From the NCBI GenBank assembly GCA_018826075.1, contig JAHKAJ010000035.1:15069-79068 (forward strand): a DNA stretch of 64,000 bases, given 5' to 3'. Positions within the stretch are counted from its first letter, which is position 1; each line of letters opens with the position of its first letter. The DNA is from Candidatus Omnitrophota bacterium. GTDB taxonomy: Bacteria; Omnitrophota; Gorgyraeia; Duberdicusellales; 4484-171. Below the pieces are notes generated by a model that saw only the letters and a program-made list of their open reading frames with translations, was not told where the DNA came from and made no database searches. The translations under genes and the position numbers were made by a program. This document shows, in pieces, positions 11,737 to 35,246 of this stretch.

Positions 11737-12306
11737 ATGGATAGTCCAAGTAAAATAACCGAACAACGGGCCAAGGATTTAAAGGAAATCGGCATTGTCA
11801 TTGACAGCTGGGATGATATTTTTTCCGACTTTGACCCCCGGCCGCTAACCGAGCGGACAGTTTCCGAAGACTTTCTTGATGAGTTGAGGAAACGCTATAA
11901 AGAAACCCGTACTGGAGAGTTTATCATCACTATCTACGCCCCTTTTTCCTTAAAAGATGAAGCTTCGGAGAAGATGGTTATTCAAAGATTGAAGAAACAC
12001 TTTCGTCATAAATTGTTACAAAAAAAGAAGCTGATCGTAAAAATCCGCCTGCGCGGGGTTATTTTTGTTCTCATCGGTATCTGTTCCTTAAGTTTTTTAA
12101 CCTTGGCTACTTACTTTAAGTTTGCAACCGAGATAACTATCCAGATTATGGGTATTTTTCTTATGCCTTTGGGTTGGTTTGGTTTTTGGGAAGGGCTTTC
12201 TAAACTTATTGATACTTCTCCGGTAGTTATCCATGATGAAAAATTATTTCAGAAACTTTCCAAAGCGCGTTATAGTTTTAAATATATAACTGAGAATGAA
12301 GGGTAG
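11737..12306 (+). CDS. hypothetical protein with two C-terminal TM helices
   Basis: ORF track. No motif recognised. Confidence 0.3.
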   Translation: MDSPSKITEQRAKDLKEIGIVIDSWDDIFSDFDPRPLTERTVSEDFLDELRKRYKETRTGEFIITIYAPFSLKDEASEKMVIQRLKKHFRHKLLQKKKLIVKIRLRGVIFVLIGICSLSFLTLATYFKFATEITIQIMGIFLMPLGWFGFWEGLSKLIDTSPVVIHDEKLFQKLSKARYSFKYITENEG

Positions 12307-12347
12307 GCGTATATTACAGCGGGAATAAGTAAGGGGGGCAAGAGACT

Positions 12348-12782
12348 ATGAAAGGAATAGTTTGTAAAGTCTGTGGTTATATTTCGATAAATGGGAAAGC
12401 TCCCGAGAAGTGCCCGGTTTGCGGCGCTCCGGCTTCCGCCTTTAAAGAAGACCCCAAGGCTATCAAAACAGCCGAGGATGAGGTAAATTTAAGCGAAAAA
12501 CATACTCCGGTTATAACTATCGCCAGAAAGTGCGGCCTTATCCCTGAAGGTTGTCAGGATGTACATGCCAAAGTGGGCAAGATCCAGCACCCGATGCTTG
12601 TCGAGCATTATATTACTACTATCGATTTTTACCTGGATAAAGAGTTTTTAGCCCGGGTACATTTAACTCCCGAAAAACTCAATCCGGCAGCCGCCCTGCA
12701 CCTTAAAGCGGAAAGCGGAAAACTTTCGGTTGTCGAGCATTGCAATCTGCACGGCGCCTGGATTGCTGAAACTGACTTGTAA
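12348..12782 (+). CDS. superoxide reductase (desulfoferrodoxin/neelaredoxin family) with an N-terminal CxxC-x15-CxxC rubredoxin-like domain
   Basis: N-terminal CKVCG...CPVCG. SOR catalytic-domain motifs EKHTPVI, two His in HPMLVEHY, and the C-x2-H ligand pair (CNLHG). Confidence 0.75.
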   Translation: MKGIVCKVCGYISINGKAPEKCPVCGAPASAFKEDPKAIKTAEDEVNLSEKHTPVITIARKCGLIPEGCQDVHAKVGKIQHPMLVEHYITTIDFYLDKEFLARVHLTPEKLNPAAALHLKAESGKLSVVEHCNLHGAWIAETDL

Positions 12783-12788
12783 AGAAAA

Positions 12789-13478
12789 ATGTCAGGCAAT
12801 AGGATTCTGATAGTTGAAGACGATAAGCCTATTTCCCAGCTGGTCAAATACAATTTGGAAAAAGCTGGGTTCAGCTGCCTTACTGCGATTAGCGGCGAAG
12901 AAGCTATAGAGATCCTAGATAAGCAGGCCGTTGATTTAATCATTTTGGATATAATGCTTCCAAAAATCGATGGCTTTGAGACTTGTAAGCTGATTAAAGA
13001 AGACAAGCGGCTATCTTCGATCCCGATAGTTATGCTTACCGCTAAAGGTGAAGAAGTAGATAAGGTAGTGGGTTTTGAATTGGGGGCGGATGACTATATT
13101 GTAAAGCCGTTTAGCCCTCGGGAGCTCACTCTTAGGATAAAGGCGATTTTAAGGCGCCGGCGGATTAAAGAAGAAGTAAAAAATATTTTCACTGCTGACA
13201 GGCTAACCATAGATCTTTCCCGCCATAAGGTCATCTTGGATAAAAAAGAAGTAGTTTTGACCCAGATGGAGTTCAAGCTGTTAGTCAAGCTTATTCAGAG
13301 GAAAGGCCGGGTGCAGTCAAGAGATTCTTTGCTTGAAGAGGTCTGGGATATTGCTGCTGACGTTACCACCCGTACCATAGACACTCACATCAAACGCCTT
13401 CGGCAAAAATTAGGTAAAGCCGGTAAATTAATCGAAACCATCAGGGGTGTCGGTTACCGCTTTAGTGAGGAGGGTTGA
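12789..13478 (+). CDS. phoB: OmpR/PhoB-family response regulator
   Basis: Receiver domain (ILIVEDD, D in LDIMLP, K in IVKPF) plus a winged-helix C-terminal domain. Sits immediately upstream of the kinase and the pst operon. Confidence 0.85.
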   Translation: MSGNRILIVEDDKPISQLVKYNLEKAGFSCLTAISGEEAIEILDKQAVDLIILDIMLPKIDGFETCKLIKEDKRLSSIPIVMLTAKGEEVDKVVGFELGADDYIVKPFSPRELTLRIKAILRRRRIKEEVKNIFTADRLTIDLSRHKVILDKKEVVLTQMEFKLLVKLIQRKGRVQSRDSLLEEVWDIAADVTTRTIDTHIKRLRQKLGKAGKLIETIRGVGYRFSEEG

Positions 13479-13481
13479 TTT

Positions 13482-15248
13482 TTGAGGATAAGTATCCATT
13501 ATAAAATTACTTTTATTTTCGTAATAATTACTGCAGTCATTCTCTCCGGGGTTTATTTTTACCTCAATAGCAATCTGAAAAAATTTACCTATCAGCGTAT
13601 AAAAACTAACCTTGCTAAACAAATCGCTTTAAGCCGGACATATCTAGAGCTAGAGTCTTCGAAAAATATCACAACTTACGATTTAGATGTTGCCGCCGAT
13701 GATATCGGAAAAGATTTGGGCCTTAGAGCTACAATTATTGGGTTTGACGGCGTAGTTTATGGTGATTCTGAATTAGAGGGGGATTCTCTATTAAAGGTTG
13801 AAAACCACCTTTACCGGCCGGAAGTCCAGCAGGCCATTAAATCCGGAAGCGGCGAAAGCCGGCGTTTCAGTAATACCGTCAAAAAAGATTTGCTTTATAT
13901 AACTTCAGTTTACGGCCAAGGTTCTAAGCAGGGAATAATTCGTTTGTCTATTCCCCTTTCAGAGATAGGCCAGATATCCGATCGTTTGAGGCAGACTTTG
14001 ATCCTTTCGCTTTTATTAGCTTTCATCTTGGCGGTTTTGGTTAGTTTTTTGGCTTCCAACTTCATTTCCAACCCAATTCGGGAGATATCTCTTAAGGCTA
14101 AAGACATTTCCCGGGGCCATTTTAGTCAAAAGATAATTTGCCGGCTTAACGATGAAATTAGTGATTTAGCCGAGGCTATCAATAATATGTCGGAAAAGGT
14201 AAAAGCCAGGATCGAAGAGGTCAATTACAGCAAATCCCGCTTAGAGGCAGTATTCTTAAGTATGCTCGAAGGGGTCATGGTTGTGGATATCAAGGGTAAG
14301 ATTTTGTTAATGAACCAGGCACTTAAGGATTATTTAAAGATCGATGAGGATCCTTTGGGAAAAAAGCCGCTTGAGGCGATACGCAATATCGAGATTCAGG
14401 GAATAGTCGATATTGTTTTAAATTCGAACCAGGAACTTATCAGCCGGGAGATCTCGGTTTTGCTTCCCGAAGAAAGAGTTTTTCTGGTACACGCTGCAGC
14501 TATTGGTAAAGACAAAAACAGCGAAGGAGCAGTTTTAGTTTTCCATGACGTTAGCAATTTAAGAAAGTTGGAAAGGCTGCGCCAGGATTTCGTGGCTAAC
14601 GTATCGCATGAGCTGCGCACCCCGGTGTCGACGCTTAAGGGTTATGCTGAAACTTTGCTCCAGGGAGCGTTAGAGGATAAGAAAAATGCCAGAGATTTTT
14701 TAGAAATTATCCTTTCTGATTCCAATAGGCTGGCTAGTTTAATCGATGACCTCTTAGACCTTTCTAAAATTGAATCGGGTAAACTTATTCTGGATAAAAA
14801 TTCCTATAAACTTTCGGAGATTGTAAAAAAAGTTTTGGTTAATTTAAAAATAAAAGATAGATCATTGAAAGTCAGCATAGACATACCTGATGATTTGCCG
14901 AAGGTAGCAGTTGATGAAGCCAGAATAAAACAAGTATTGTTCAATCTCATAGATAATGCTGTGAAGTATAACCGTCCCCAAGGCCAGATAACCATATCCG
15001 CAGAAGACGCCGGAGAAGCTGTGAGAGTGAATATTTCTGATACCGGCATAGGTATTCCTCAAAAAGATTTACCCCGGATATTTGAACGTTTTTACCGCGT
15101 GGATAAAGCCCGCTCCCGCGAGCTTGGCGGTACCGGCCTGGGGCTTTCAATCGTTAAGCATATCATTCAAGCCCACAATGGCGAAGTTTTTGTTCAGAGC
15201 ATAGAAGGCCAAGGCTCTACTTTTAGTTTCATCCTCCCCAAGGCTTAA
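13482..15248 (+). CDS. phoR: sensor histidine kinase (PhoR-like)
   Basis: Two TM helices, HAMP, PAS, a HisKA H-box (SHELRTP) and HATPase_c N, G1 and G2 boxes (DTGIGI, GGTGLGL). TTG start. Confidence 0.85.
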   Translation: MRISIHYKITFIFVIITAVILSGVYFYLNSNLKKFTYQRIKTNLAKQIALSRTYLELESSKNITTYDLDVAADDIGKDLGLRATIIGFDGVVYGDSELEGDSLLKVENHLYRPEVQQAIKSGSGESRRFSNTVKKDLLYITSVYGQGSKQGIIRLSIPLSEIGQISDRLRQTLILSLLLAFILAVLVSFLASNFISNPIREISLKAKDISRGHFSQKIICRLNDEISDLAEAINNMSEKVKARIEEVNYSKSRLEAVFLSMLEGVMVVDIKGKILLMNQALKDYLKIDEDPLGKKPLEAIRNIEIQGIVDIVLNSNQELISREISVLLPEERVFLVHAAAIGKDKNSEGAVLVFHDVSNLRKLERLRQDFVANVSHELRTPVSTLKGYAETLLQGALEDKKNARDFLEIILSDSNRLASLIDDLLDLSKIESGKLILDKNSYKLSEIVKKVLVNLKIKDRSLKVSIDIPDDLPKVAVDEARIKQVLFNLIDNAVKYNRPQGQITISAEDAGEAVRVNISDTGIGIPQKDLPRIFERFYRVDKARSRELGGTGLGLSIVKHIIQAHNGEVFVQSIEGQGSTFSFILPKA

Positions 15249-15285
15249 AATTTAGCCTATTTTCCCTAAAATCCGGCCAATAAAA

Positions 15286-15324
15286 TTCACCAAAATTTCA
15301 CATTTTTGTAATCTTATCTTCACA
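15286..15324 (+). promoter_or_regulatory. candidate Pho box: TTCAC(C/A) hexamers phased at 11 bp
   Basis: TTCACC at 15286, TTCACA at 15297 and TTCACA at 15319, giving an 11/22-bp register. Lies downstream of phoR and upstream of a small ORF, the porin and pstS. Confidence 0.45.
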
Positions 15325-15381
15325 TAATTTTTGTATATTTTTATTGGCAATAAAGCAAATACAAAAATAAAGGAGGTGAAG

Positions 15382-15573
15382 ATGAAGATTAGTAAGAAGA
15401 TCTCAGGATTACAAAAGGATTACATTGCCAGCTATTTGCGTTCGCAAATCTCCAACTTGCAGACAGTATTAGATTATTTAGAGAAAGAAGATTATTACTG
15501 CCAACAAGAACTTTTTGAGCGGTTGCGAAAGGTAAGGCGAGGGTTCTACCAGTTTAGAGATTCAAGTAATTAA
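15382..15573 (+). CDS. small hypothetical protein (63 aa) with a strong RBS
   Basis: AAGGAGGTG lies 7 nt before the ATG at 15382. The ORF-track start at 15331 has no RBS. Confidence 0.3.
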   Translation: MKISKKISGLQKDYIASYLRSQISNLQTVLDYLEKEDYYCQQELFERLRKVRRGFYQFRDSSN

Positions 15574-15587
15574 TTTGGAAAGGAGGT

Positions 15588-16862
15588 TTGATGATGAGAA
15601 AAATAATTTTACTTGTAGCCAGCGGGTTGATCTTGGCCGGGTTCAGCGCTTATCCAGCCTGGGCCGGTGAGATTGATATCTTGGTTGAAAAACTGGTAGA
15701 AAAAGGGGTGATCAGCCACGGTGAGGCCCGCCAGATCTTAACCGAGACCCAGGAGGAAATGAAGGCTCAGCTTGCTCAAGGAAAGAGCGAGGCATTACCT
15801 GCTTGGGTTCAGGCCATTAAATTAAAAGGAGATTTTCGTTTAAGGGGCCAGGAAAAACACCAAAAATCAGCCAATAATTACAACAAAGATACGACTATCG
15901 GCCGTGTCCGTTTACGCCTGGGACTGGAAGGCAAAGTAAATGAAAAGCTTTTAGCCGGAGTAGGCATAGCCAGCGGCAGCGGAGACCCGCGCTCTACCAA
16001 TGTAACCCTTGGTGATAGTAATCTTAAGAAAGCCCTGGTACTTGATTATGCTTACGCAAAATACAGCCCATTAAGTTGGTTCAATCTTGTAGGAGGAAAA
16101 ATGCTTTTGGCTGATGCGCTTTGGATGCCTACAGATTTAGTCTGGGATTCGGATATCACCCCTGAAGGAGTAATATCCCAATTTAATAAAGAACTCGGCT
16201 CAAATACCCAGGGCTTTTTGAATGCCGGCGTATTGCTGGTTGATGACGATTCCAGCTCAGATTACGACGCTCCGATGGCCTATATTATTCAGCCGGGGAT
16301 AAGCCACAAAATTAATGACAATCTATCTTTAAAAGGCGCGGTTTCTCTTCAGGCCTTTCATAATCTTAAAGGCCACGTAAGCAGCGGTTATTCAGCGGAG
16401 AGCAATACCGGAAACACCGATAACGGAACAACACCATACACCTATGATTACCAGATGATTAATCCGGCATTAGAAGTTAAAGTGATACAGCCTTTTAATG
16501 CGCTGGGATTGAATGTTGAGTCACTTAAGTTGTTAGCCGAATATGTTAATAATTTTGATGTTTCCGAGAAGGCCAGCGGTTTTTCTGCCGGGTTTAAGCT
16601 GGGCCATGAGAAAATTAGTAAATGGGGGGATTGGCAGCTTAAGTATATCTATGCCATGCTGGGTAAAGACGCGGTGCTCGATGTTTTGCCTGATTCTGAC
16701 CGTTACGGCGGTGCAACAGCTATAAGAAGCTATGAAACAGAGTTGAGTTTTGGGTTAGGCAAGAATACTTCTTTAGGTATAGATGTATACCGTTCTGAAA
16801 AAATAGGAATGGCCAAGGCTCCTGAAACTTTGGTCCAGGTTGATTGGAATGTGAAATTTTAA
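15588..16862 (+). CDS. outer-membrane beta-barrel porin, possibly phosphate-selective
   Basis: Signal peptide ending PAWA. C-terminal ...VDWNVKF. Beta-strand-like alternating pattern. Position between the Pho-box-like repeats and pstS. Confidence 0.45.
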   Translation: MMMRKIILLVASGLILAGFSAYPAWAGEIDILVEKLVEKGVISHGEARQILTETQEEMKAQLAQGKSEALPAWVQAIKLKGDFRLRGQEKHQKSANNYNKDTTIGRVRLRLGLEGKVNEKLLAGVGIASGSGDPRSTNVTLGDSNLKKALVLDYAYAKYSPLSWFNLVGGKMLLADALWMPTDLVWDSDITPEGVISQFNKELGSNTQGFLNAGVLLVDDDSSSDYDAPMAYIIQPGISHKINDNLSLKGAVSLQAFHNLKGHVSSGYSAESNTGNTDNGTTPYTYDYQMINPALEVKVIQPFNALGLNVESLKLLAEYVNNFDVSEKASGFSAGFKLGHEKISKWGDWQLKYIYAMLGKDAVLDVLPDSDRYGGATAIRSYETELSFGLGKNTSLGIDVYRSEKIGMAKAPETLVQVDWNVKF

Positions 16863-16881
16863 TTAAAAGAAGGAGGAAGAA

Positions 16882-17694
16882 ATGGTTTGGGTTAAAAAAA
16901 TATTTTTGTTAACAGCCGCAGCTACGGTGTTTCTGACACCCTGTTTTGCTGAAAGCCTTACGATTAAAGGGTCAACTACCGTGCTTCCGATTGCTCAAGC
17001 CTGTGCGGAATCTTTTATGGACGATAATTCGGGAGCCGATATCTCGGTTCAGGGCGGCGGCTCAAGCGTGGGTATCGCGGCGATCATTGACGGGACTACT
17101 GATATCGGTAATGCTTCACGGCCGATTAAAGACAGCGAGTTAGCTCAGGCAGCCAGCCGGGGAGTTAGCCCTAAGGCTCATGTCGTGGCTATGGATGGGA
17201 TCGTGGTAATCGTTCACCCTTCGAATTCTTTAACCGCTTTGACCAAAAGTCAGATTAAGGATATCTATACCGGAAAAATATCTCATTGGTCATCGCTTGG
17301 CGCTTCTGGCGGCAAGATAGTGGTTATCGGCCGCGATTCAGCTTCCGGTACTTTTGAGGCTTTCACCGAGCTGGCTTTGTCTAAAGCTAAGACCCGTCCT
17401 GATGCTTTGTTGGAAGCTTCTAACCAGGCTGTGGCTACTGTTGTAGCTAAAACCCCGGGGGCAATCGGCTATGTCGGTTTAGGCTTTGTTACTGATAAGG
17501 TAAAGGCTTTAACCGTGGGGGGTATCGAGTGCTCAAAAGAGACAGTTCTTTCCGGAGAATATTCTTTGGCCCGGCCGTTGTTTATGTATACTAACGGTAA
17601 GCCTCAAGGGTTAGTCAAAGAGTTTATCGAATTTGTGACTGGTGAGATAGGGCAGCATCTAGTTGAGAAAAATGGTTACGTAGGTTTAAAGTAA
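16882..17694 (+). CDS. pstS: phosphate ABC transporter substrate-binding protein
   Basis: Signal peptide and PBP-like fold motifs (SGTFEAF, GAIGYVGLG). Followed by pstCAB. Confidence 0.9.
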   Translation: MVWVKKIFLLTAAATVFLTPCFAESLTIKGSTTVLPIAQACAESFMDDNSGADISVQGGGSSVGIAAIIDGTTDIGNASRPIKDSELAQAASRGVSPKAHVVAMDGIVVIVHPSNSLTALTKSQIKDIYTGKISHWSSLGASGGKIVVIGRDSASGTFEAFTELALSKAKTRPDALLEASNQAVATVVAKTPGAIGYVGLGFVTDKVKALTVGGIECSKETVLSGEYSLARPLFMYTNGKPQGLVKEFIEFVTGEIGQHLVEKNGYVGLK

Positions 17695-17730
17695 ACAATT
17701 AACTGTTCATTTAATTTTTCCTTTGGTGTT

Positions 17731-17763
17731 AGGGGCAGGACAGGCATTCTCTGTCCTGCCCCT
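17731..17763 (+). promoter_or_regulatory. intercistronic 13-bp perfect stem-loop between pstS and pstC
   Basis: aggggcaggacag-gcattct-ctgtcctgcccct with no U tract. Likely an mRNA-stability or processing element. Confidence 0.6.
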
Positions 17764-17782
17764 GGTTCAATAAAGGGCGGCT

Positions 17783-18661
17783 ATGGGCAAATCGGATATT
17801 CATAAAAAGATTTTTGCGGTTTTGGCTTTTTCTTCGTTAGTCTTTCTAATCGGGATCACTATTGTCCTGTTCAAAGAAGGCCTGCCGATTTTCAGAATCG
17901 TAAAACCGCTGAATTTTCTTTTCGGTAAGTATTGGTACCCGACTTATGACCCGCCGGATTTCGGAATTTTACCGTTGATTTTAGGTTCTTTATGGGTTAC
18001 TGCCGGGGCTCTTTTGGTTTGCGTTCCTTTGGGTATAGGCAGTGCTCTGTATCTGAATGAATTGGCCGGTCCAAAACAAAGAGCTTTTTTAAAGCCGGCC
18101 ATCGAGATCTTAGCCAGCATCCCTTCTATTGTTTTTGGTTTTTTTGGCATGGTAGTAGTAGCCCCTTTCTTGCAGAAATTACTTAACATTCCGGTAGGCC
18201 TTACTGCCTTTACCGGCAGTTTGATTTTGGGGGTTATGGCTACTCCTACGGTTTGCAGTATTGCCGAAGACGCCTTGAGTTTTGTTCCCAAGAGTTTTCG
18301 CGAGGCCTCGTTTGCCGTGGGTGCTAACCGCTGGCAGACTTTAGTCAAAGTAACATTACCGGCAGCCGGTTCAGGCATTTCCACCGCGGTTATTTTGGGG
18401 ATGAGCCGGGCAGTAGGAGAAACTATGACTGTATTGATGGTTTGTGGCGGCGCAGCAGTAATCCCTAAGTCTTTTTTTGAGCCGGTACGGCCGATGACCG
18501 CAACTATTGCCGCTGAGATGGGCGAAGCAGTAACCGGCAGCCCGCATTTTCAGGCTTTGTTTGCCATCGGGATGATTTTGTTTCTGGTGACTTTAGTTTT
18601 TAATATAGCCGCTGAGATAATCAGCCGCCGCTTCCGTTTAAAACTGGGGTTGGGCCGATGA
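17783..18661 (+). CDS. pstC: phosphate ABC transporter permease PstC
   Basis: Six-TM permease with an EAA-like loop. Confidence 0.9.
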   Translation: MGKSDIHKKIFAVLAFSSLVFLIGITIVLFKEGLPIFRIVKPLNFLFGKYWYPTYDPPDFGILPLILGSLWVTAGALLVCVPLGIGSALYLNELAGPKQRAFLKPAIEILASIPSIVFGFFGMVVVAPFLQKLLNIPVGLTAFTGSLILGVMATPTVCSIAEDALSFVPKSFREASFAVGANRWQTLVKVTLPAAGSGISTAVILGMSRAVGETMTVLMVCGGAAVIPKSFFEPVRPMTATIAAEMGEAVTGSPHFQALFAIGMILFLVTLVFNIAAEIISRRFRLKLGLGR

Positions 18662-19515
18662 AGATGAATAAGAGCTTAGACCAGAAAATAGGCTTTAGTT
18701 TGATTTTTTCGATGATGCTGATCACTTTATTTTTTCTCGGTTCCTTAGTATACTTTATTGCTGTCCGGGGGGCCGGGATAATTTCCTGGCAGTTTTTGAC
18801 TGATGTGCCCCGGGAAGCGATGACTAAAGGCGGCGTAGCCCCGGCAATCGTAGGCACCTTTTACCTCATGCTGGGTTCAGTGCTGGTAGCTTTGCCTTTA
18901 GGGGTGGCTTGTGCGATCTATCTTTGCGAATACAGCCCCAAAAAGACAATCGTCAACCTTATCCGGATAAGTATCAACAATTTAGCCGGAGTACCTTCAG
19001 TGGTTTTTGGCCTTTTTGGCCTGGCGGTTTTTGTAAAGTTTTTTGGCTTCGGCGTTTCGATTCTTTCCGGATGCCTTACATTAGGGATAATGGTTTTACC
19101 TAACATTATCTCGGCTTCCCAGGAGGCTTTGATAGCGGTTCCCCAATCTCACCGTGAAGCTTCCCTGGCTTTGGGCGCGACCCAATGGCAGACTATAAAA
19201 AAGGTAGTGCTTCCCGGCTCTTTGCCCGGTATTTTAACCGGCGTTATTTTAAGTATCGGCCGGGTGGCTGGAGAAACCGCACCGATTCTTTTCACCGCCG
19301 GCACTTTCTATATGCGGGGTTTTCCCAAATCGCCGCTATCTGAAACCATGGTTTTACCTTACCATATCTACGCTTTAATGACTGAAGGGGTACATCCTGA
19401 ATTTCAAGTTAAGATTGCTTATGGCTGCGCTTTTATTTTATTAATTCTGGTATTGTTAGTTTCGTCTTTCGCCATCATTTTACGTCAACAACAAAGGAGT
19501 CGTTATGGAATCTGA
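18658..19515 (+). CDS. pstA: phosphate ABC transporter permease PstA
   Basis: Permease paralog. Overlaps the pstC stop. Confidence 0.9.
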
Positions 19516-20266
19516 GTTAAAGATCAGGCTGGAAACAGTCAATTTTTTTTATGGTAAACAGCAGGCTTTGAAAGATATTAGTTTTGAGGTCTATAAAAAT
19601 AAAGTCACCGCGGTCATCGGGCCTTCGGGCTGCGGTAAATCTACTTTGATCCGGCTGTTTAACCGGATGAACGAGCTTATTCCTAATACCCGCTTGGAAG
19701 GAAAAATCCGCCTGGACCGACAGAATATCTACGAGCCGCAGGTCGATGTGGTCGAATTGCGCCGGCGAGTAGGGATGGTTTTTCAAAAGCCCAACCCTTT
19801 TCCCAAGTCGATCTTTGAAAATGTCAGTTATGGCCTGGCCGTCAACGGCATAAAAGACCGGGACTATCTGGCCGAAAAGGTAGAACGCAGCCTTAAGGAT
19901 GCGGCTTTGTGGAAAGAGGTCAGCGGCCGTTTGTACAAAAGCGCTTTAGCTTTATCCGGCGGCCAGCAGCAGCGGCTTTGCATTGCCCGGGCTTTGGCAG
20001 TCGAACCGGAGGTGATTCTTTTTGACGAGCCCTGTTCGGCTTTAGACCCCACGGCTACTTTAAAAATAGAGGAGTTGATCCAGAGGCTAAAGGAAAAATA
20101 TACCATTATTATCGTAACTCACAATATGCAGCAGGCTGCCCGGATTTCTGATCAAACTGCTTTTTTAATGCTTGGCGAATTAATAGAATATGATTTAACC
20201 AATAAGATTTTTACTAGTCCTTCTAAAAAAATAACTGAAGATTATATTACCGGGAGGTTTGGTTGA
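19505..20266 (+). CDS. pstB: phosphate ABC transporter ATP-binding protein
   Basis: Walker [18 protein letters not shown] and Walker B ILFDEP. Confidence 0.9.
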
Positions 20267-20267
20267 G

Positions 20268-21380
20268 ATGAAAGAAATTATAATACTGTTTGTCTGCGTT
20301 GAGAATTCCTGTCGCAGCCAGATGGCTGAGGGTTGGGCTAAGGAGTTTAGCCGTCAGGCAGGTTTAGATTTTATTAAAGCTTATAGCGCCGGCTCAAACC
20401 CTTCAGGTAAAGTTAATCCTGAAGCAGTTAAAGTGATGCAGGAAGCCGGAGTGGACATCAGCGGAGCGTTTTCTAAAGGGTTCGCCTATTTAGCCCAAAA
20501 GGATATAGATATAGCAGTTACTCTTGGCTGTCAGGATACGTGCCCTTATTTACCGTCAGATAAACATTTGCAGTGGGACGTCGAAGATCCCAAAGCTAAG
20601 AATATCGATAGTTTTCGTCAGGTCCGTGATATAATTAAAGAGAAAGTTAAGACTTTAATCAAAGAGTTGTTTTATCAAGCTCAATCAGGAGGAGAGATTA
20701 TGGAACGCAGTTTTGACGATGCTTTGAACAAGTTAAACGATGATATTTTAAAAATGGCTGCTTTAGCTGAAGAAGCGATTTATAAATCAGTTGAGTCGTT
20801 AAAAAACCAAGATAAAAAACTGGCCCAAAAGGTCGTCGATGACGATCAAAAGATTGATGAATTGGAGATTGCGGTTGAAGAGGAGGCCATTGATCTTTTA
20901 GCGCTTCAGCAGCCAATGGCTAGAGACCTAAGGTTTATTACTACCGGCATGAAGATTAACGCTGAACTTGAGCGGATTGCTGACCTGGCAGTTAATATCG
21001 CCCAGAGGGTTTTAGATGTCGTTGATAAACCCTTAGTTAAACCTTTAATCGATATACCTAAATTGGCTGAAGTCAGCCGGAAAATGGTTAAAGGAGCAAT
21101 CGATGCTTTTGTTAAGCGCAGTGAAGATTTGGCCCGGCAAGTTATTATGATGGATCCAGAAGCTGACTGCCTGCGTAATAAAATTTACGATGAACTTATT
21201 AATGATTATATGATTAAAGATGGGGCAACCGCCCCTCGGGCAGTTCCACTTATCCTGATTGCCAGGCATTTAGAAAGGATTTGTGACCACGCCGGCTATA
21301 TCGCCGCTGATGTTATCTACATGATTAAAGCTAAGGTAGTGAAGCATCATCCTGAACGCTTGAAAAATAACCATTCCTGA
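20268..21380 (+). CDS. phoU: fusion protein: an N-terminal ArsC/low-molecular-weight phosphotyrosine-phosphatase-fold domain joined to full-length PhoU
   Basis: The N-terminal domain (about 140 aa) has the CX5R P-loop CVENSCRS, a DP loop (DVEDP) and extra Cys residues (CQDTC). The C-terminal domain (about 225 aa) is PhoU with two repeats. An internal AGGAGG RBS and ATG lie at 20687-20702, in frame. The ATG at 20268 is preferred over the TTG at 20259. Confidence 0.75.
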   Translation: MKEIIILFVCVENSCRSQMAEGWAKEFSRQAGLDFIKAYSAGSNPSGKVNPEAVKVMQEAGVDISGAFSKGFAYLAQKDIDIAVTLGCQDTCPYLPSDKHLQWDVEDPKAKNIDSFRQVRDIIKEKVKTLIKELFYQAQSGGEIMERSFDDALNKLNDDILKMAALAEEAIYKSVESLKNQDKKLAQKVVDDDQKIDELEIAVEEEAIDLLALQQPMARDLRFITTGMKINAELERIADLAVNIAQRVLDVVDKPLVKPLIDIPKLAEVSRKMVKGAIDAFVKRSEDLARQVIMMDPEADCLRNKIYDELINDYMIKDGATAPRAVPLILIARHLERICDHAGYIAADVIYMIKAKVVKHHPERLKNNHS

Positions 21381-21450
21381 AACTTTTGAACCTGATTTTT
21401 TTCCTTGACAGGATTGTGAATAGTGTTACTATTTATAAAAAGGTAATACT

Positions 21451-21918
21451 ATGCCGAAGGTAAACCCCGTTAGAAAAAAATCCCCTCGAAAGAAAAATCC
21501 ATTTTCTAACGGGGTAAAACGATTTGGCGTTTCTTTGGAAGAGGATTTGTTGAAGGAACTGGACGCTTTGGTAAAAGCCCATAAATTTCCCAACCGCTCG
21601 CAGGCAGTCCGTTCTTTGATCAGAAATAGTGTTGTGGTCCAGAATTGGGAAGATAATAAAGAGGTCGCCGGCTGTCTGGTCATTGTTTACGATCATCACA
21701 AGCGCGACCTGATGAATAAATCGGTAACTTTGCAACATGCCTATGAAGAGTTAGTATTGTCGGTCCAGCATGTCCACTTAGACCACCACAATTGCTTAGA
21801 GATGGTTGCACTTAAGGGTAAAGCCAGCAAATTAAAAGAATTGGCCGATAAGCTAATCGCTCTCAAAGGAATTAAACACGGGCAGCTGGTAATGAGCAGT
21901 GTAGGTAGCGTCAAATAA
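21451..21918 (+). CDS. nikR: nickel-responsive regulator NikR
   Basis: Ribbon-helix-helix (RFGVSLEEDLLKELD...NRSQAVRSLI) plus a C-terminal His/Cys-rich metal-binding domain (HVHLDHHNCLE). Confidence 0.8.
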   Translation: MPKVNPVRKKSPRKKNPFSNGVKRFGVSLEEDLLKELDALVKAHKFPNRSQAVRSLIRNSVVVQNWEDNKEVAGCLVIVYDHHKRDLMNKSVTLQHAYEELVLSVQHVHLDHHNCLEMVALKGKASKLKELADKLIALKGIKHGQLVMSSVGSVK

Positions 21919-21955
21919 TTTTTTTCATTTGGTTTATAAATAATGGAGGTGAGGT

Positions 21956-22873
21956 ATGCATATTCCTAATGCTATGTTACAGGGGCAGATTTGCCCGGTT
22001 ACTGCGGTGGCCAGTGTTATCGGTATTGGCTTAGCAGCTTGGAAGGCTTTTTCATCTAAAGAGAAACCGGCAGCTTCCCGATTCGCAGCAATCACGGCTT
22101 TAATTTTTGCTGTTCAAATGATGAATTTTTCGATTAGTGGAGGTACTTCCGGACATTTACTTGGCGGTGTGCTCGCGGCTGCGTTGCTGGGTATTCCCTT
22201 TGGTATTTTATCTATAGCGCTTGTGGTAACGACACAATGTTTAGTTTTTTCTGATGGGGGATTTATTGTATTGGGTGCAAATATACTTAATATGGCTATT
22301 ATTGGTGCTGGCCTGGGAGGGCTTATTCAGGCGTTTCTTAGTAAAGGTTTGCCTATAAAATCGGTCCGACAAGCAGCTAGCCTTGGACTTACCAGTTGGC
22401 TTGCGGTGATGATGGCAGCTTTAGCCTGTAGTATCGAATTAGCGGTTTCAGGAACAATTCCTTTCTTCAAAGTTGTCGGAGCGATGCTTGGTACCCATGC
22501 TTTTATCGGTATCGGCGAAGGGTTGATTACTGTCGCGGCCTATTATGTTTTTACTTCTGAACCAGGAAGAGTTTCTCAGAGAAGATCGGCCACGGTTCCT
22601 TTGCTGGCCGCCGGCATAATCGCGTTTGTATTAAGCCCTTTTGCTAGCGGTTTTCCTGATGGATTAGAGTGGGTTGCCGGAAAATTCCAGTTTCTTCATG
22701 AATCATCACCGACTTTTATCAGCCCTTTGTCTGATTACATAGTTCCGGCTGTCAGCAATGAAATGTTAGCTACTGGTTTGGCAGGATTGGCGGGATTAAT
22801 GATTACTTTTTTTATTGCTTGGATAGTCGCCCGCCTACTGGTAAAGCCGGTAAAAATTGGGGTAAGTTCTTAA
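21956..22873 (+). CDS. nikM: NikM/CbiM-family ECF-transporter substrate-capture component with a C-terminal PDGLE domain
   Basis: N-terminal MHIPNAM (the Met-His metal-ligand N-terminus of CbiM/NikM). C-terminal GFPDGLEW. Directly downstream of nikR. No Q (T) or O (A) components nearby. Confidence 0.7.
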   Translation: MHIPNAMLQGQICPVTAVASVIGIGLAAWKAFSSKEKPAASRFAAITALIFAVQMMNFSISGGTSGHLLGGVLAAALLGIPFGILSIALVVTTQCLVFSDGGFIVLGANILNMAIIGAGLGGLIQAFLSKGLPIKSVRQAASLGLTSWLAVMMAALACSIELAVSGTIPFFKVVGAMLGTHAFIGIGEGLITVAAYYVFTSEPGRVSQRRSATVPLLAAGIIAFVLSPFASGFPDGLEWVAGKFQFLHESSPTFISPLSDYIVPAVSNEMLATGLAGLAGLMITFFIAWIVARLLVKPVKIGVSS

Positions 22874-30880: not shown

Positions 30881-31858
30881 ATGGAAATTATTTTATTGGG
30901 CTTAACGCTTCTCTGCGGGGGGTATATCGGCTGGGCTATCGGTGCAAATGATGCTGCCAACTGCGTAGGTGCAGATATTGGTTCGGGCAAGATGACTCTT
31001 AAGCAGGGAATAGCTATTACCTGCGTTTTTAGCTTTTTAGGGGCAATACTTTTAGGCTCGAAAGTAATCAAGACAGTAGGTAAAGGTATAGTTGCTTTGG
31101 ACCAATTGGAGCCCCAGCTGAGTTTATTGGTTGCTTTAGCCGCCTGTTTTGGTGCGGGTACCTGGGTAATCATAGCTACTATGCGCGGCCTGCCGGTTTC
31201 AACCAGCCACTCTATAGTAGGCGCAGTAGGAGGAGCCGGGTTGGCCATCGGAGCACCGGTTATCTGGAAGAAATTACTGGATATTTTTATTTGCTGGTTT
31301 CTTACGCCGATCGGCGCGGCAATACTTTCCTATCTTTTATTCAGGCCTTTCCGTAGGCTATTTTATATGGTTGTGCCCAGGAAGTTCCATGATCCGGTGG
31401 TAACCTTTTTTATATTTGCCACTAGTATTTATTTAGCTTTTACCTGGGGCGGAAACGACGTTGCCAATGCTACTGGGGTGCTTGCCGGAGTTGGAATAAT
31501 GAGCTCAAAACAGGCAGCAGCTTTCGGAGCGATTGCGATAGTCATTGGAATTATAACTTTGGGCCGGAAAGTGATTCAGACAATCGGATTTAAAATTACC
31601 CGATTAACTCCCTTAATGACTATCGTGGCTGAGATAGCCAGCGGGATAAATGTACATGTCTATACAATTTTTGGGATACCGGTTTCAACCAGCCACTCTA
31701 TTATCGGAGCAGTCGCCGGTGTAGGCTTGGTTAAAGGCATAAAAATGATAAATAAAAGATTGATTGGCGAAATAATCCTGGTTTGGAGCCTTACTCCTTT
31801 AGCCAGCGGTATTTTGTCGTACTTGACTATAAGGTTTATTAAATTGTTTTTTAGATAA
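30881..31858 (+). CDS. pit: PiT-family inorganic phosphate transporter
   Basis: GANDAAN and GGNDVANA signature repeats. Confidence 0.85.
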   Translation: MEIILLGLTLLCGGYIGWAIGANDAANCVGADIGSGKMTLKQGIAITCVFSFLGAILLGSKVIKTVGKGIVALDQLEPQLSLLVALAACFGAGTWVIIATMRGLPVSTSHSIVGAVGGAGLAIGAPVIWKKLLDIFICWFLTPIGAAILSYLLFRPFRRLFYMVVPRKFHDPVVTFFIFATSIYLAFTWGGNDVANATGVLAGVGIMSSKQAAAFGAIAIVIGIITLGRKVIQTIGFKITRLTPLMTIVAEIASGINVHVYTIFGIPVSTSHSIIGAVAGVGLVKGIKMINKRLIGEIILVWSLTPLASGILSYLTIRFIKLFFR

Positions 31859-31872
31859 AAGGAGGAGTTGAA

Positions 31873-32541
31873 ATGGAAAGGCCTAAAAACATATTCGGAT
31901 GGTTTGGGATGAAGCAGGAGGAATTGGTTTTAGAAGATGCCAAGAAACATGTGGAAATTACTTATCAGACTGTAGACTGGTTTAAAAAGGCAATTTCAGC
32001 CTTTGTTGCCGGTAATAACCGGGAAAAAAACGAAGCCATTGAAAAGGTAAGCGAGTGCGAACGCCAGGCCGATGAACTTAGAAAAAAAATGGTTAATGAA
32101 TTGTCGGAGGGTTTATTAGTTGCTCCTGACCGCGAGGATTTAATGCATTTTGTTAAGTCTTTGGACAGGATAGCCGATTGGACCAATGGAGCGGCCCGCT
32201 TACTGGGGTTTATTGAACAGAAACTTCCTGACAATGTATTGGAAAATATTTCTTTGGCTACGGATTTGATTTTCAACTCTATTACCAAACTTAGAGAGGC
32301 TATCCAATCATTAATCAGTAATGATTTTAAGAAATCTCTTAAGGATTGTGAAGAGGTAGACCATATAGAGCATTCTGCCGATGAACAAAAAAAAGTTTTG
32401 ATTGGGGTAATTATCCATGCGCGGCTTGAGCCGACCAGTCTTCTTTTGACTTATCAATTGGCCGAGTATTTAGAAGGAGTGACTGATAAAATTGAAGACG
32501 CCGCTGATTTTATTAAAGTTGTGGCTGTAAGAGTAAACTAG
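31873..32541 (+). CDS. DUF47 / PhoU-like Pit accessory protein
   Basis: About 220 aa, helical and PhoU-like. Immediately downstream of pit, the canonical pairing. Confidence 0.7.
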   Translation: MERPKNIFGWFGMKQEELVLEDAKKHVEITYQTVDWFKKAISAFVAGNNREKNEAIEKVSECERQADELRKKMVNELSEGLLVAPDREDLMHFVKSLDRIADWTNGAARLLGFIEQKLPDNVLENISLATDLIFNSITKLREAIQSLISNDFKKSLKDCEEVDHIEHSADEQKKVLIGVIIHARLEPTSLLLTYQLAEYLEGVTDKIEDAADFIKVVAVRVN

Positions 32542-34166: not shown

Positions 34167-35246
34167 ATGAATGATATTCCCTGTCAAGAACGCCGCTTAA
34201 GTTTTTTTGAGCGATACCTCACGCTTTGGGTGGTTGGTTGTATCGGGTTTGGTATCCTGTTGGGTAAATTATTCCCTCAGCTGGCAGTGACTCTCGACCA
34301 ATTTTCGATATATCAAGTTTCAATCCCTATAGCGATCTGTCTTTTCTTTATGATGTATCCGATAATGGTCAAGATTGATTTTGCTGAGGTAGTCAAGGCC
34401 GGCAAGACTCCAAAACCGGTTATTCTTACTTTGTTTGTGAATTGGTGTATAAAACCGTTCACTATGCTGGCCATCGCTATGTTTTTCCTTGGGTTTTTGT
34501 TTAAAGGGTGGTTGCCGGGAGTGGAGATTGTTAAAGGCGGGGCAGAAGTGGAATTATTCAGGTCATATATCGCCGGATGTATTCTTTTGGGTATTGCTCC
34601 CTGTACGGCAATGGTTTTGATCTGGGGGCATCTTTCCAAGGGTAACGACGGTCACACCTTGGTAATGGTGGCGATCAATTCTTTGACTATGCTATTTTTA
34701 TATGCGCCTTTGGGAGGATGGCTTTTAGGTGTGAATAAGATGCAGATCCCCTGGCAGACGATTATTTTGTCAGTGATTATCTATGTGGGCTTACCGTTGT
34801 TTCTGGGGTACCACTCAAGAAAATGGTTAATCGCCAGAAAGGGGATCGGGTGGTTTAAGGAAAAATTTCTGCATTACCTGACCCCGGTTTCAATATCGGC
34901 TTTACTTCTTACTTTGGTTTTGCTTTTTTCTTTTAAGGGCGAGTTGATCATCAACCAGCCGCAGATAATTTTTTTAATCGCCATACCGCTGTTTATCCAA
35001 ACTTGTCTTATTTTTGCTATAACCTACTGCATGGCTAAATGGTTAAAATTACCTTATCGAGACGCCGCACCTTCGGCTTTGATCGGAGCCAGCAACCATT
35101 TTGAGGTAGCCATAGCAACCTCAACCATTCTTTTTGGCATATCTTCCGGCGCTGCCCTGGCAACCGTTGTCGGGGTGTTGATTGAAGTTCCGGTAATGCT
35201 GATGCTGGTCAGGGTTTGCCTGAAGACTCAGAACTGGTTTAAATAA
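34167..35246 (+). CDS. acr3: ACR3-family arsenite efflux permease
   Basis: [11 protein letters not shown]-terminus, ten TM helices, and the conserved Cys in the [10 protein letters not shown] helix. Confidence 0.85.

Follow-up and report, generated by a model that had tools for sequence, protein, structure and literature searches.

The window analyzed here is a stretch of 64,000 nucleotides (nt) of contig JAHKAJ010000035.1 (assembly GCA_018826075.1, forward-strand positions 15,069 to 79,068) from an Omnitrophota metagenome-assembled genome (MAG), and all coordinates below are those of the window. The last gene of its phoB-phoR-porin-pstSCAB operon is a fusion, arsC::phoU, confirmed to encode one protein composed of an ArsC-type domain with the fold of low-molecular-weight protein tyrosine phosphatases (LMW-PTPs), a flexible linker of approximately 10 residues, and a complete two-repeat PhoU (Table 1). 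An earlier interpretation made from the letters alone (the sequence-only reading) had proposed such an in-frame joining of an ArsC/LMW-PTP-fold domain to PhoU at the end of the pst operon, and a single open frame with the Pfam domain LMWPc and two PhoU repeats bears this out. Both domains belong to well-known families; full-text literature searches gave nothing on an ArsC that is encoded within a pst operon and joined to PhoU. Homologous loci or contigs from other assemblies are designated with L numbers, and homologous proteins are designated with P numbers.

Table 1. Features of the pst operon, the arsC::phoU fusion gene, and the arsenite permease gene in the window
Feature	Position	Strand	Basis or remark
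phoB-type response regulator, first gene of the cluster	12789..13478	+	TIGR02154 best match, 245 bits, below equivalog cutoff of 296
phoR-type sensor histidine kinase	13482..15248	+	PnpS/PhoR-type best; NF046044, 427 bits against cutoff of 400
Pho-box-like direct repeats TTCACC/TTCACA/TTCACA at 0/11/33 nt	15286..15324	+	Between phoR and porin gene; predicted
Outer membrane porin (Porin_5), co-oriented with pst	15588..16862	+	PF16930, E value 2e-46; same position in relatives
pstS, phosphate-binding protein	16882..17694	+	Open reading frame (ORF); PBP_like_2 in orthologues; tblastn synteny
pstC, permease	17783..18661	+	ORF; BPD_transp_1 in orthologous loci
pstA, permease, overlaps pstC and pstB	18658..19515	+	ORF; synteny
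pstB, ATPase	19505..20266	+	ABC_tran in orthologous loci
arsC::phoU fusion gene, 370 amino acids (aa)	20268..21380	+	Single ORF; LMWPc plus two PhoU repeats; fused likewise in L093
ArsC-type LMW-PTP domain, residues 1 to ~131	20268..20660	+	PF01451; ArsC NCBIfam models; PDB matches; fold
CX5R P-loop CVENSCRS, residues 10 to 17 (C10 nucleophile, R16)	20295..20318	+	Aligned to pI258 ArsC and Cg_ArsC1'
Resolving cysteine pair C88-x3-C92 in GCQDTCP (CQDTC, residues 88 to 92)	20529..20543	+	Aligned to Cg_ArsC1'
D107-P108 general-acid loop	20586..20591	+	Aligned to DP of pI258 ArsC
Interdomain linker, residues ~132 to 144 (former arsC 3' end/intergenic junction)	20661..20699	+	Low model confidence; stop codon in unfused relatives
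Internal Shine-Dalgarno (SD) AGGAGG (20687 to 20692), 7-nt spacer, in-frame ATG 20700	20687..20702	+	Direct reading; ancestral phoU start site
PhoU, complete, 226 aa if made separately	20700..21380	+	TIGR02135; fold; free-standing relatives
ACR3 arsenite efflux permease, 13 kb from the fusion gene	34167..35246	+	TIGR00832, 406 bits against cutoff of 283

Both the ORF listing and a direct reading of the frame give 370 uninterrupted codons on the plus strand, from ATG 20268 to the stop codon at 21378 to 21380. A GGGAGG precedes this ATG, which is separated by 1 nt from the TGA stop of pstB (20264 to 20266); an in-frame TTG is also present upstream at 20259. An identical 370-aa protein has been deposited at NCBI from a Candidatus Omnitrophica MAG under the name PhoU only; an exact-sequence query of a contig index gave no record of it, and genomic context was therefore taken from homologues. 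Scanning JGI metagenomes with the PhoU part as the query recovered a separate contig, L093, that encodes (at 41 to 1153) a 370-aa fused protein with 93% aa and 87% nt identity to that of the window and an identical junction, QSGGEIMERSF, within a shared stretch reading ...FYQ(A/T)QSGGEIMERSF..., with the SD and ATG shared likewise. L091 (protein P0002), at 64% aa identity, likewise reads GGE(V/I)M where the domains meet and has GGA GGA GAG as codons there, as in the window. The sequence-only reading had recommended surveying PhoU homologues for N-terminal extensions and had raised the prospect of a frameshift or lost-stop error; the survey returned approximately 16 further ArsC-PhoU proteins at 53 to 65% identity from independent assemblies, plus a family with the reverse domain order, and the frame is real, as the independent contig L093 shows the same junction and frame. 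The ratio of nonsynonymous to synonymous divergence (dN/dS) between the window and L093 is 0.05 for the whole gene. With separate values of 0.21 (ArsC part) and 0.02 (PhoU), purifying selection acts on both parts.

The N-terminal domain matches LMWPc (PF01451) over residues 6 to 130 with an E value of about 1e-23 to 1e-24. Its 144 residues score 92 to 96 bits against three NCBIfam ArsC models, all under the equivalog cutoffs (TIGR02691, 93 to 95.5 bits against 174.3; TIGR02689, 92 to 95 bits against 157.6; and NF010053, 94 to 96 bits against 215), and 17 bits against the Wzb model NF007520, for which the cutoff is 243. The best sequence matches in the PDB are arsenate reductases, namely, pI258 ArsC (1e-20), Synechocystis ArsC, Corynebacterium glutamicum Cg_ArsC1', and Bacillus subtilis ArsC, whereas similarity to YwlE covers residues 6 to 69 only (E value 2e-10) and matches to LMW-PTPs are likewise much weaker and partial. 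Free-standing homologues of the domain carry the name ArsC at NCBI and JGI. In an AlphaFold2 (AF2) model of the fusion protein, which has a mean predicted local distance difference test (pLDDT) score of 85 and a predicted template-modeling (pTM) score of 0.58, the N-terminal domain adopts a fold with a template-modeling score (TMt) of 0.84 to pI258 ArsC (1LJU), compared to 0.67 to 0.76 for LMW-PTPs and 0.75 for YwlE. The linker falls below a pLDDT of 50 at residues 141 to 147; given this and the pTM score, the orientation of the two domains is not interpretable from the model, and a fold search found no solved chain spanning both domains. The sequence-only reading had hesitated between an arsenate reductase and a phosphotyrosine phosphatase; the first half of that suggestion holds (92 to 96 bits and a TMt of 0.84), while the second, of a Wzb or other PTP type, does not (17 bits and a TMt of about 0.7).

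The motifs CVENSCRS, CQDTC, and DP that the sequence-only reading had quoted do lie at residues 10 to 17, 88 to 92, and 107 to 108, and the catalytic cysteine triad C10/C88/C92 is intact once the domain is aligned to pI258 ArsC and Cg_ArsC1'. C10 and R16 pair with C10 and R16 of pI258 ArsC, C10 pairs with C88 of Cg_ArsC1', and TLGCQDTCP aligns residue for residue with TMGCGDVCP of Cg_ArsC1', such that C88 and C92 correspond to C162 and C166. Cg_ArsC1' is thioredoxin dependent, and C88, C162, and C166 are its catalytic cysteines (PMC6514093). A set of 15 relatives, some fused and some free-standing, shows no variation at C10, N13, R16, S17, C88, C92, P93, and D107, and P108 is kept in at least 90% of fused and unfused relatives. 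For relatives from the same GCxDxCP subfamily (41 to 48% identity), 22 of 80 GTDB loci have an ACR3 gene no more than 4 kb away; most of these loci are from Actinomycetota and Bacteroidota. Judging from these sequence features, the N-terminal domain is best called a member of a divergent, catalytically equipped thioredoxin-type ArsC-like subfamily with predicted arsenate reductase activity. No second LMWPc domain was detected by tblastn in the 64-kb window.

The remainder of the protein contains two PhoU repeats (PF01895, E value 6e-43) and exceeds the cutoff of the phoU_full model TIGR02135 (130.25 bits) by a wide margin, with 197 bits for the fused protein (residues 148 to 357) and 199.5 bits for residues 145 to 370 alone, covering model positions 2 to 211/212. 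It is 75 to 78% identical to free-standing Omnitrophota PhoU proteins of 226 aa. The AF2 model is helical over residues 147 to 354, with pLDDT values mostly above 90, and superimposes on Aquifex aeolicus PhoU (1T72/1T8B) with a TMt of 0.96 and a root mean square deviation of 1.0 Å. An E/D-xxx-D motif in each repeat is a hallmark of PhoU, and neither E235-R236-x-x-D239 nor E336-R337-x-x-D340 varies among 14 fused proteins.

The AGGAGG that had been noted 7 nt before an in-frame ATG is exactly in place, and this ATG opens MERSFDDALNKL (a MERSFDD start). The duplex energy of the internal SD is -10.3 kcal/mol, as strong as in unfused phoU genes, which range from -4.3 to -13.3 kcal/mol. Among fused genes, all three in which the Met is kept (the window, L091, and L092) have a strong SD (-9.5 to -10.3 kcal/mol), and both in which the Met has been replaced, L001 (..RNERH..) and L003 (..KTGRH..), have lost the SD too (-3.3 and -4.1 kcal/mol). 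At the protein level, the Met is retained in approximately 10 of 15 N-terminal fusions. It is plausible that both fused and free PhoU are made in this genome, a possibility that the sequence-only reading had raised, but the capacity for both is not a conserved property of the fusion. In lineages without the internal start, the fused polypeptide is the sole operon-encoded PhoU and has to work in that form. A comparison of the window with L093 gives 99% identity over the 90 nt that flank the internal start (20678 to 20767), in contrast to 76 to 86% in the PhoU core, and synonymous divergence (dS) is 0.29 in the ArsC part versus 1.31 in PhoU. With such mosaic divergence, recombination seems at least as likely as constraint on the start site.

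The fusion arose from two separate, adjacent genes. The closest free-standing homologues of the N-terminal domain are 128 to 146 aa long with 57 to 64% identity. Two of them are encoded in L006 and L007, where the gene order is phoB-phoR-porin-pstS-pstC-pstA-pstB-arsC-phoU and the separate arsC and phoU genes have a gap of 1 nt (L006) or 9 nt (L007) between them. A separate pstB-arsC-phoU arrangement is also present in three GTDB MAGs (L009 to L011) and five JGI contigs (L095, L097, L116, L151, and L163). In these unfused loci, the SD of phoU lies in or just after the 3' end of arsC, and a stop codon immediately precedes the phoU ATG. The window keeps the SD and ATG at this junction without the stop, which identifies the fusion as the result of stop codon loss between translationally coupled neighbors, and because unfused relatives start phoU at the same place, the internal ribosome-binding site (RBS) and start codon represent the ancestral phoU initiation site. 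From these arrangements, the more basic feature is the insertion of arsC between pstB and phoU, with fusion as a secondary step.

We were able to classify 76 of the closest PhoU loci in JGI metagenomes. In 69, pstB directly precedes phoU; of the others, five have an unfused arsC between pstB and phoU, L093 has the fusion, and in the last, arsC follows phoU. With arsC in only 7 of 76 close PhoU loci, its candidacy as a core pst operon gene in Omnitrophota was rejected; it is an occasional passenger of the operon. On a neighbor-joining tree of PhoU domains, fused proteins are scattered among unfused ones, and the nearest neighbors of the window protein are unfused, at a distance of 0.19. This scatter argues for several independent fusion events.

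Fusions are frequent in public data. Proteins with the reverse order, PhoU followed by ArsC, include P0016, P0036, and P0064. A profile search of 1.8 billion representatives yielded approximately 20 fused clusters at 50% identity among the best 150 matches, mostly of the reverse order; no N-terminal fusion was retrieved as a single full-length match among these 50%-identity representatives, probably since clusters collapse. When a profile of reverse-order fusions was used, all 120 top matches contained both Pfam domains, representing at least 120 clusters. These proteins are labeled PhoU and come from MAGs of Deltaproteobacteria, Myxococcales, and "Burkholderiales"; the CX5R motif is present in 118, W..DP in 115, and a TLCxEExC-type cysteine pair in 107. 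Five reverse-order fusions (P0246, P0287, P0292, P0302, and P0348) have lost the P-loop Cys and/or Arg together with the downstream cysteine pair, and in such lineages, the ArsC-like domain appears from its residues to be a pseudo-enzyme. A 389-aa LMWPc-PhoU protein is also encoded by the cultured Chloroflexota species Thermoflexus hugenholtzii (RefSeq WP_448595614.1). In every context examined, the fusion protein is encoded by the last gene of pstSCAB, including Omnitrophota and Thermoflexus and, for the reverse order, L004 and MAGs of Myxococcales and Deltaproteobacteria. Both domain orders are represented, at least three phyla have such fusions, and the proteins are annotated only as PhoU. 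Full-text literature searches found no paper on an ArsC-PhoU fusion or on arsC in pst operons (a match concerning Accumulibacter was irrelevant), which agrees with the earlier characterization of this coupling as undescribed; the fusion of the window is not unique, as public databases contain many such proteins from several phyla.

Some relatives have further architectures. P0011 (ArsC-PhoU) and P0016 (PhoU-ArsC) are nearest neighbors in the PhoU tree at a distance of 0.20, and their sequences suggest a change of domain order within one lineage. P0269 (456 aa) consists of three tandem ArsC-like LMWPc domains, and P0304 (460 aa) has an ArsR-like N terminus followed by two LMWPc domains.

The phoB position is occupied likewise in L001, L003, L004, L006, and L007, and phoR homologues in related loci have a HAMP-PAS-HisKA-HATPase arrangement. 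Direct repeats phased by 11 bp are the binding pattern of PhoB/PhoP-type regulators. Hexamers of the TTCACA type occur in the same place as in the window in L003 (4853 to 4891), L006 (2854 to 2892), and L007 (2858 to 2896) with the same 0/11/33 spacing and in L001 (4791 to 4828) with a 0/21/32 spacing; the background for such hexamers in the window is 2.9 per kb. This array, which resembles the 11-bp-phased pattern, is likely the Pho box of the Omnitrophota PhoB, which would bind there, and its presence would place the porin-pst-arsC::phoU unit in the Pho regulon. A promoter and terminator scan of positions 12300 to 21700 gave counts no higher than expected from shuffled sequence, with no convincing terminator after the fusion gene. 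Between the repeats and the porin gene lies an ORF of 63 aa (15382 to 15573, plus strand) with a strong RBS (AAAGGAGGTGAAG), and tblastn finds peptides with 33 to 36% identity in the same place in L006 and L003.

Farther downstream, the window encodes the arsenite permease ACR3. The sequence-only reading had placed this gene at 34167 with no arsC or arsR beside it, and this description is accurate: the TIGR00832 match is strong, the neighbors encode an OmpA-like protein and a radical-SAM protein, and with neither arsC nor arsR adjacent, this is not an ars operon. ACR3 is the presumed outlet for the product of the ArsC domain. Approximately 1.6 kb (two genes) upstream of ACR3, a gene for a PHO4/PiT-family transporter (30881 to 31858) is followed by one for a PhoU_div/DUF47 protein (31873 to 32541, plus strand). 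This pair is a second phosphate/arsenate import module near the arsenite pump, PiT-type carriers being another entry route for arsenate.

We propose, with moderate confidence, that arsC::phoU encodes a Pho-regulated arsenate reductase that is held at the Pst transporter and feeds ACR3. Phosphate transporters are the main door for arsenate, which is open widest under phosphate starvation, and lactobacilli have been shown to take up As(V) in a Pst-dependent manner (PMC11084836). Because PhoU forms a bridge from PstSCAB to the PAS domain of PhoR (PMC13577022, PMC9239213, and PMC4423584), fusion to it would hold a reductase at the cytoplasmic mouth of the importer. According to this proposal, some pst operons of Omnitrophota acquired, between pstB and phoU, an arsC of the thioredoxin-coupled class with an LMW-PTP fold, and loss of its stop codon in this lineage gave the operon a PhoU carrying an N-terminal reductase on a flexible linker. 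Under phosphate limitation, PhoB would turn on porin-pstSCAB-arsC::phoU through the Pho-box-like promoter, and the induced Pst system would also admit arsenate. The ArsC domain, made from the same transcript and kept at the cytoplasmic face of the transporter through docking of PhoU to PstB and PhoR, would reduce arsenate by way of C10, C88, and C92 in turn, with thioredoxin recycling the enzyme and arsenite leaving through ACR3. The PhoU moiety would keep its normal role, and the SD and ATG at 20700 may also supply free PhoU. In this scheme, control by the Pho system, the reduction of arsenate, attachment to Pst, the passage of arsenite to ACR3, and use of the internal start codon are all inferred, as is the link between phosphate uptake and arsenate detoxification that the sequence-only reading had put forward.

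Several observations weigh against this proposal. In the other fused loci, no ACR3 is present within 8 to 10 kb of the fusion gene. The N-terminal domain reaches none of the curated NCBIfam ArsC equivalog cutoffs, and Cg_ArsC1', its closest tested relative, is only approximately 35 to 40% identical. The flexible linker and the pTM score of the AF2 model give no sign of a defined interface between the domains. The sporadic distribution of arsC in pst operons indicates that it is not essential to Pst or PhoU, and the loss of catalytic Cys or Arg in P0246, P0292, and P0348 suggests a noncatalytic role in those proteins. Finally, adjacent genes that are 1 to 10 nt apart fuse easily, and the fusion is therefore possibly selectively neutral.

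The main rival to the proposal of a tethered reductase is a sensory role, which we consider possible but unlikely. Here, the ArsC-like domain would not mainly detoxify arsenate but would report arsenate, or the cytoplasmic oxyanion or redox state, to PhoU. Arsenate would oxidize C88-C92, and the ensuing conformational change would alter how PhoU throttles PstB or represses PhoR, shutting Pst when arsenate enters. In pI258 ArsC, disulfide formation rearranges the cysteine-bearing segment, and the partner in the fusion is a signaling protein rather than a pump or a member of an ars operon. The five reverse-order proteins that keep the domain without the nucleophilic Cys or Arg would fit a binding or structural role, and signal sensing by PhoU is itself unresolved (PMC9239213 and PMC10055408). 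A specific version, in which binding or reaction of the P-loop with arsenate or phosphate combines with a C88/C92 redox switch to tune the gating of PstB and the repression of PhoR by PhoU, seems equally improbable to us. Against a sensory role, no protein of the Omnitrophota group departs from the full catalytic set, and CX5R is almost universally kept in the reverse-order family; moreover, the ancestral ArsC was a separate protein without a covalent link through which to pass a conformation, and the present linker is predicted to be disordered. Sensing and catalysis, however, are not mutually exclusive. If the sensory role is correct, these fusions are natural oxyanion-sensing PhoUs and would show at which face of PhoU the signal arrives, a question of long standing in Pho signaling.

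A second alternative is that loss of a stop codon simply joined co-transcribed, translationally coupled neighbors, that the covalent link adds nothing, and that only the membership of arsC in the operon is adaptive. The tight spacing of the unfused genes (1 to 10 nt), the phoU SD inside the 3' end of arsC, the rarity of fusion among close relatives (one fused versus five unfused), the position of fused forms as scattered tips in the PhoU tree, the flexible linker, and the intact internal start site in the window are all compatible with such a neutral origin. Fusion in both domain orders across at least three phyla is harder to reconcile with it, as is the persistence of fusion throughout a large and old reverse-order family comprising many 50%-identity clusters. 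Lineages without the internal SD and ATG also depend on the fused protein as the PhoU of the operon. On balance, we think that a wholly neutral link is improbable.

The sequence-only reading had offered, as its own alternative, that the LMW-PTP-fold domain dephosphorylates a component of the Pho pathway, acting on phosphotyrosine, phosphoarginine, or another residue of PhoR, PhoB, or PstB. In favor of such a role, the Pfam family is LMWPc, CX5R and Asp loops are common to phosphatases, YwlE arginine phosphatase is weakly similar over residues 6 to 69, and ArsC enzymes of the LMW-PTP fold retain low phosphatase activity. We nevertheless regard it as very unlikely and do not favor it. Membership in the Wzb/Ptp-type LMW-PTPs is not supported, given the NF007520 score, the fold comparison, and the lack of kinase or capsule genes in the operons, nor is membership in the YwlE-type arginine phosphatases, given the partial similarity and a fold match that ranks under those to ArsC. 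Arsenate reductases alone make up the top matches in both sequence and fold, with ArsC model scores far above that of Wzb; phosphatases have no need of a redox relay such as the invariant C88 and C92 provide; members of the subfamily occur near ACR3 in other genomes; and no tyrosine or arginine kinase is encoded in any operon examined. A tyrosine or arginine phosphatase identity was therefore set aside on the basis of the hidden Markov model (HMM) scores, the fold ranking, and the conserved redox cysteine pair. That an erroneous base at the stop codon or a frameshift joined two genes during sequencing or assembly is conceivable for a MAG whose relatives are mostly unfused, but this extremely improbable explanation was dropped because L093 and L091 carry the same junction, in the same frame in L093, and separate assemblies contain over 15 fused homologues.

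Comparison to characterized systems shows where the fusion protein departs from precedent. It has the fold, the CX5R P-loop, the Asp loop, and the three-cysteine relay in common with pI258 ArsC, B. subtilis ArsC, and Cg_ArsC1', and the motif GCxDxCP in common with the last of these, but thioredoxin-coupled ArsCs are only approximately 35 to 40% identical to it and belong to arsR-acr3/arsB-arsC operons, whereas the domain in the window is in a pst operon and joined to PhoU. Similarly, the PhoU proteins of Escherichia coli and Salmonella, and those of known structure from A. aeolicus (1T72) and Pseudomonas aeruginosa (4Q25), resemble the window PhoU in their two repeats, their E/D-xxx-D motifs, and their position right after pstB, but canonical PhoU is a stand-alone protein of approximately 225 to 240 aa, and that of the window has an N-terminal enzyme domain of 144 residues.

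Fusions of ArsC to other proteins are known, namely, Acr3-ArsC in Mycobacterium and ArsR-ArsC in Actinobacteria (PMC6514093). As in the window, these tether an LMW-PTP-type ArsC to a component of oxyanion traffic, which is a transporter in the case of Acr3-ArsC. Their partners, however, are the arsenite exporter and the arsenic repressor, whereas the partner in the window is the regulator of a phosphate/arsenate importer and concerns entry rather than exit. Phosphate acquisition has also been coupled to arsenic metabolism genomically and in regulation, through arsenic islands that include pst and pho genes (Li et al. 2013, PMC3834237) and through PhoBR control of arsenite oxidation (PMC4563254). 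The islands contain extra copies of pst and pho, in contrast to the single arsenic gene in what is apparently the main, Pho-regulated pst operon of the window, where it is fused to the regulator. The LMWPc-PhoU of Thermoflexus and the PhoU-LMWPc proteins of Myxococcales and Deltaproteobacteria have the same Pfam domains, are encoded by the last pstSCAB gene, and mostly have an intact CX5R motif and cysteine pair. These are independent fusions that differ in domain order or ArsC subtype (TVCD...CP or TLCxEExC and not GCxDxCP).

If the tethered-reductase proposal is correct, a reductase placed in the pst operon and repeatedly joined to a transporter-bound protein would be a compact answer to the entry of arsenate and would add a new class to the known ArsC fusions, one positioned at the importer instead of the exporter or repressor. 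Hundreds of database proteins named only PhoU carry a second, probably enzymatic, domain, and the recurrence of the fusion argues indirectly for a common site of action of PhoU and ArsC. As T. hugenholtzii is a cultured carrier, the idea is directly testable there.

Additional features were observed around these operons. Directly 3' of the fusion gene, a unit at 21405 to 22873 (plus strand) begins with a good sigma-70-like promoter (TTGACA, 16 nt, and TACTAT with TG), followed by nikR (NF003381, 163 bits) and an unannotated hydrophobic-rich ORF of 305 aa (21956 to 22873); this transcription unit is unrelated to pst and shows where the pst operon ends. Tandem pairs of pstB-like ATPase genes directly precede phoU in many pst operons of the Omnitrophota type, namely, in L099, L115, L131, L135, L136, L139, L141, L145, L149, L154, and L162. 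Duplicated Pst systems also occur, with a second pstS(-CAB) set soon after the fused or separate arsC and phoU on the contig encoding P0015 and at 15070 to 16441 of L007. In L001, the fused locus of P0010, a thioredoxin gene (12645 to 12971) lies two genes downstream of arsC::phoU; judging from its position, its product may be the reductant of the fusion protein, or its placement may be a coincidence.

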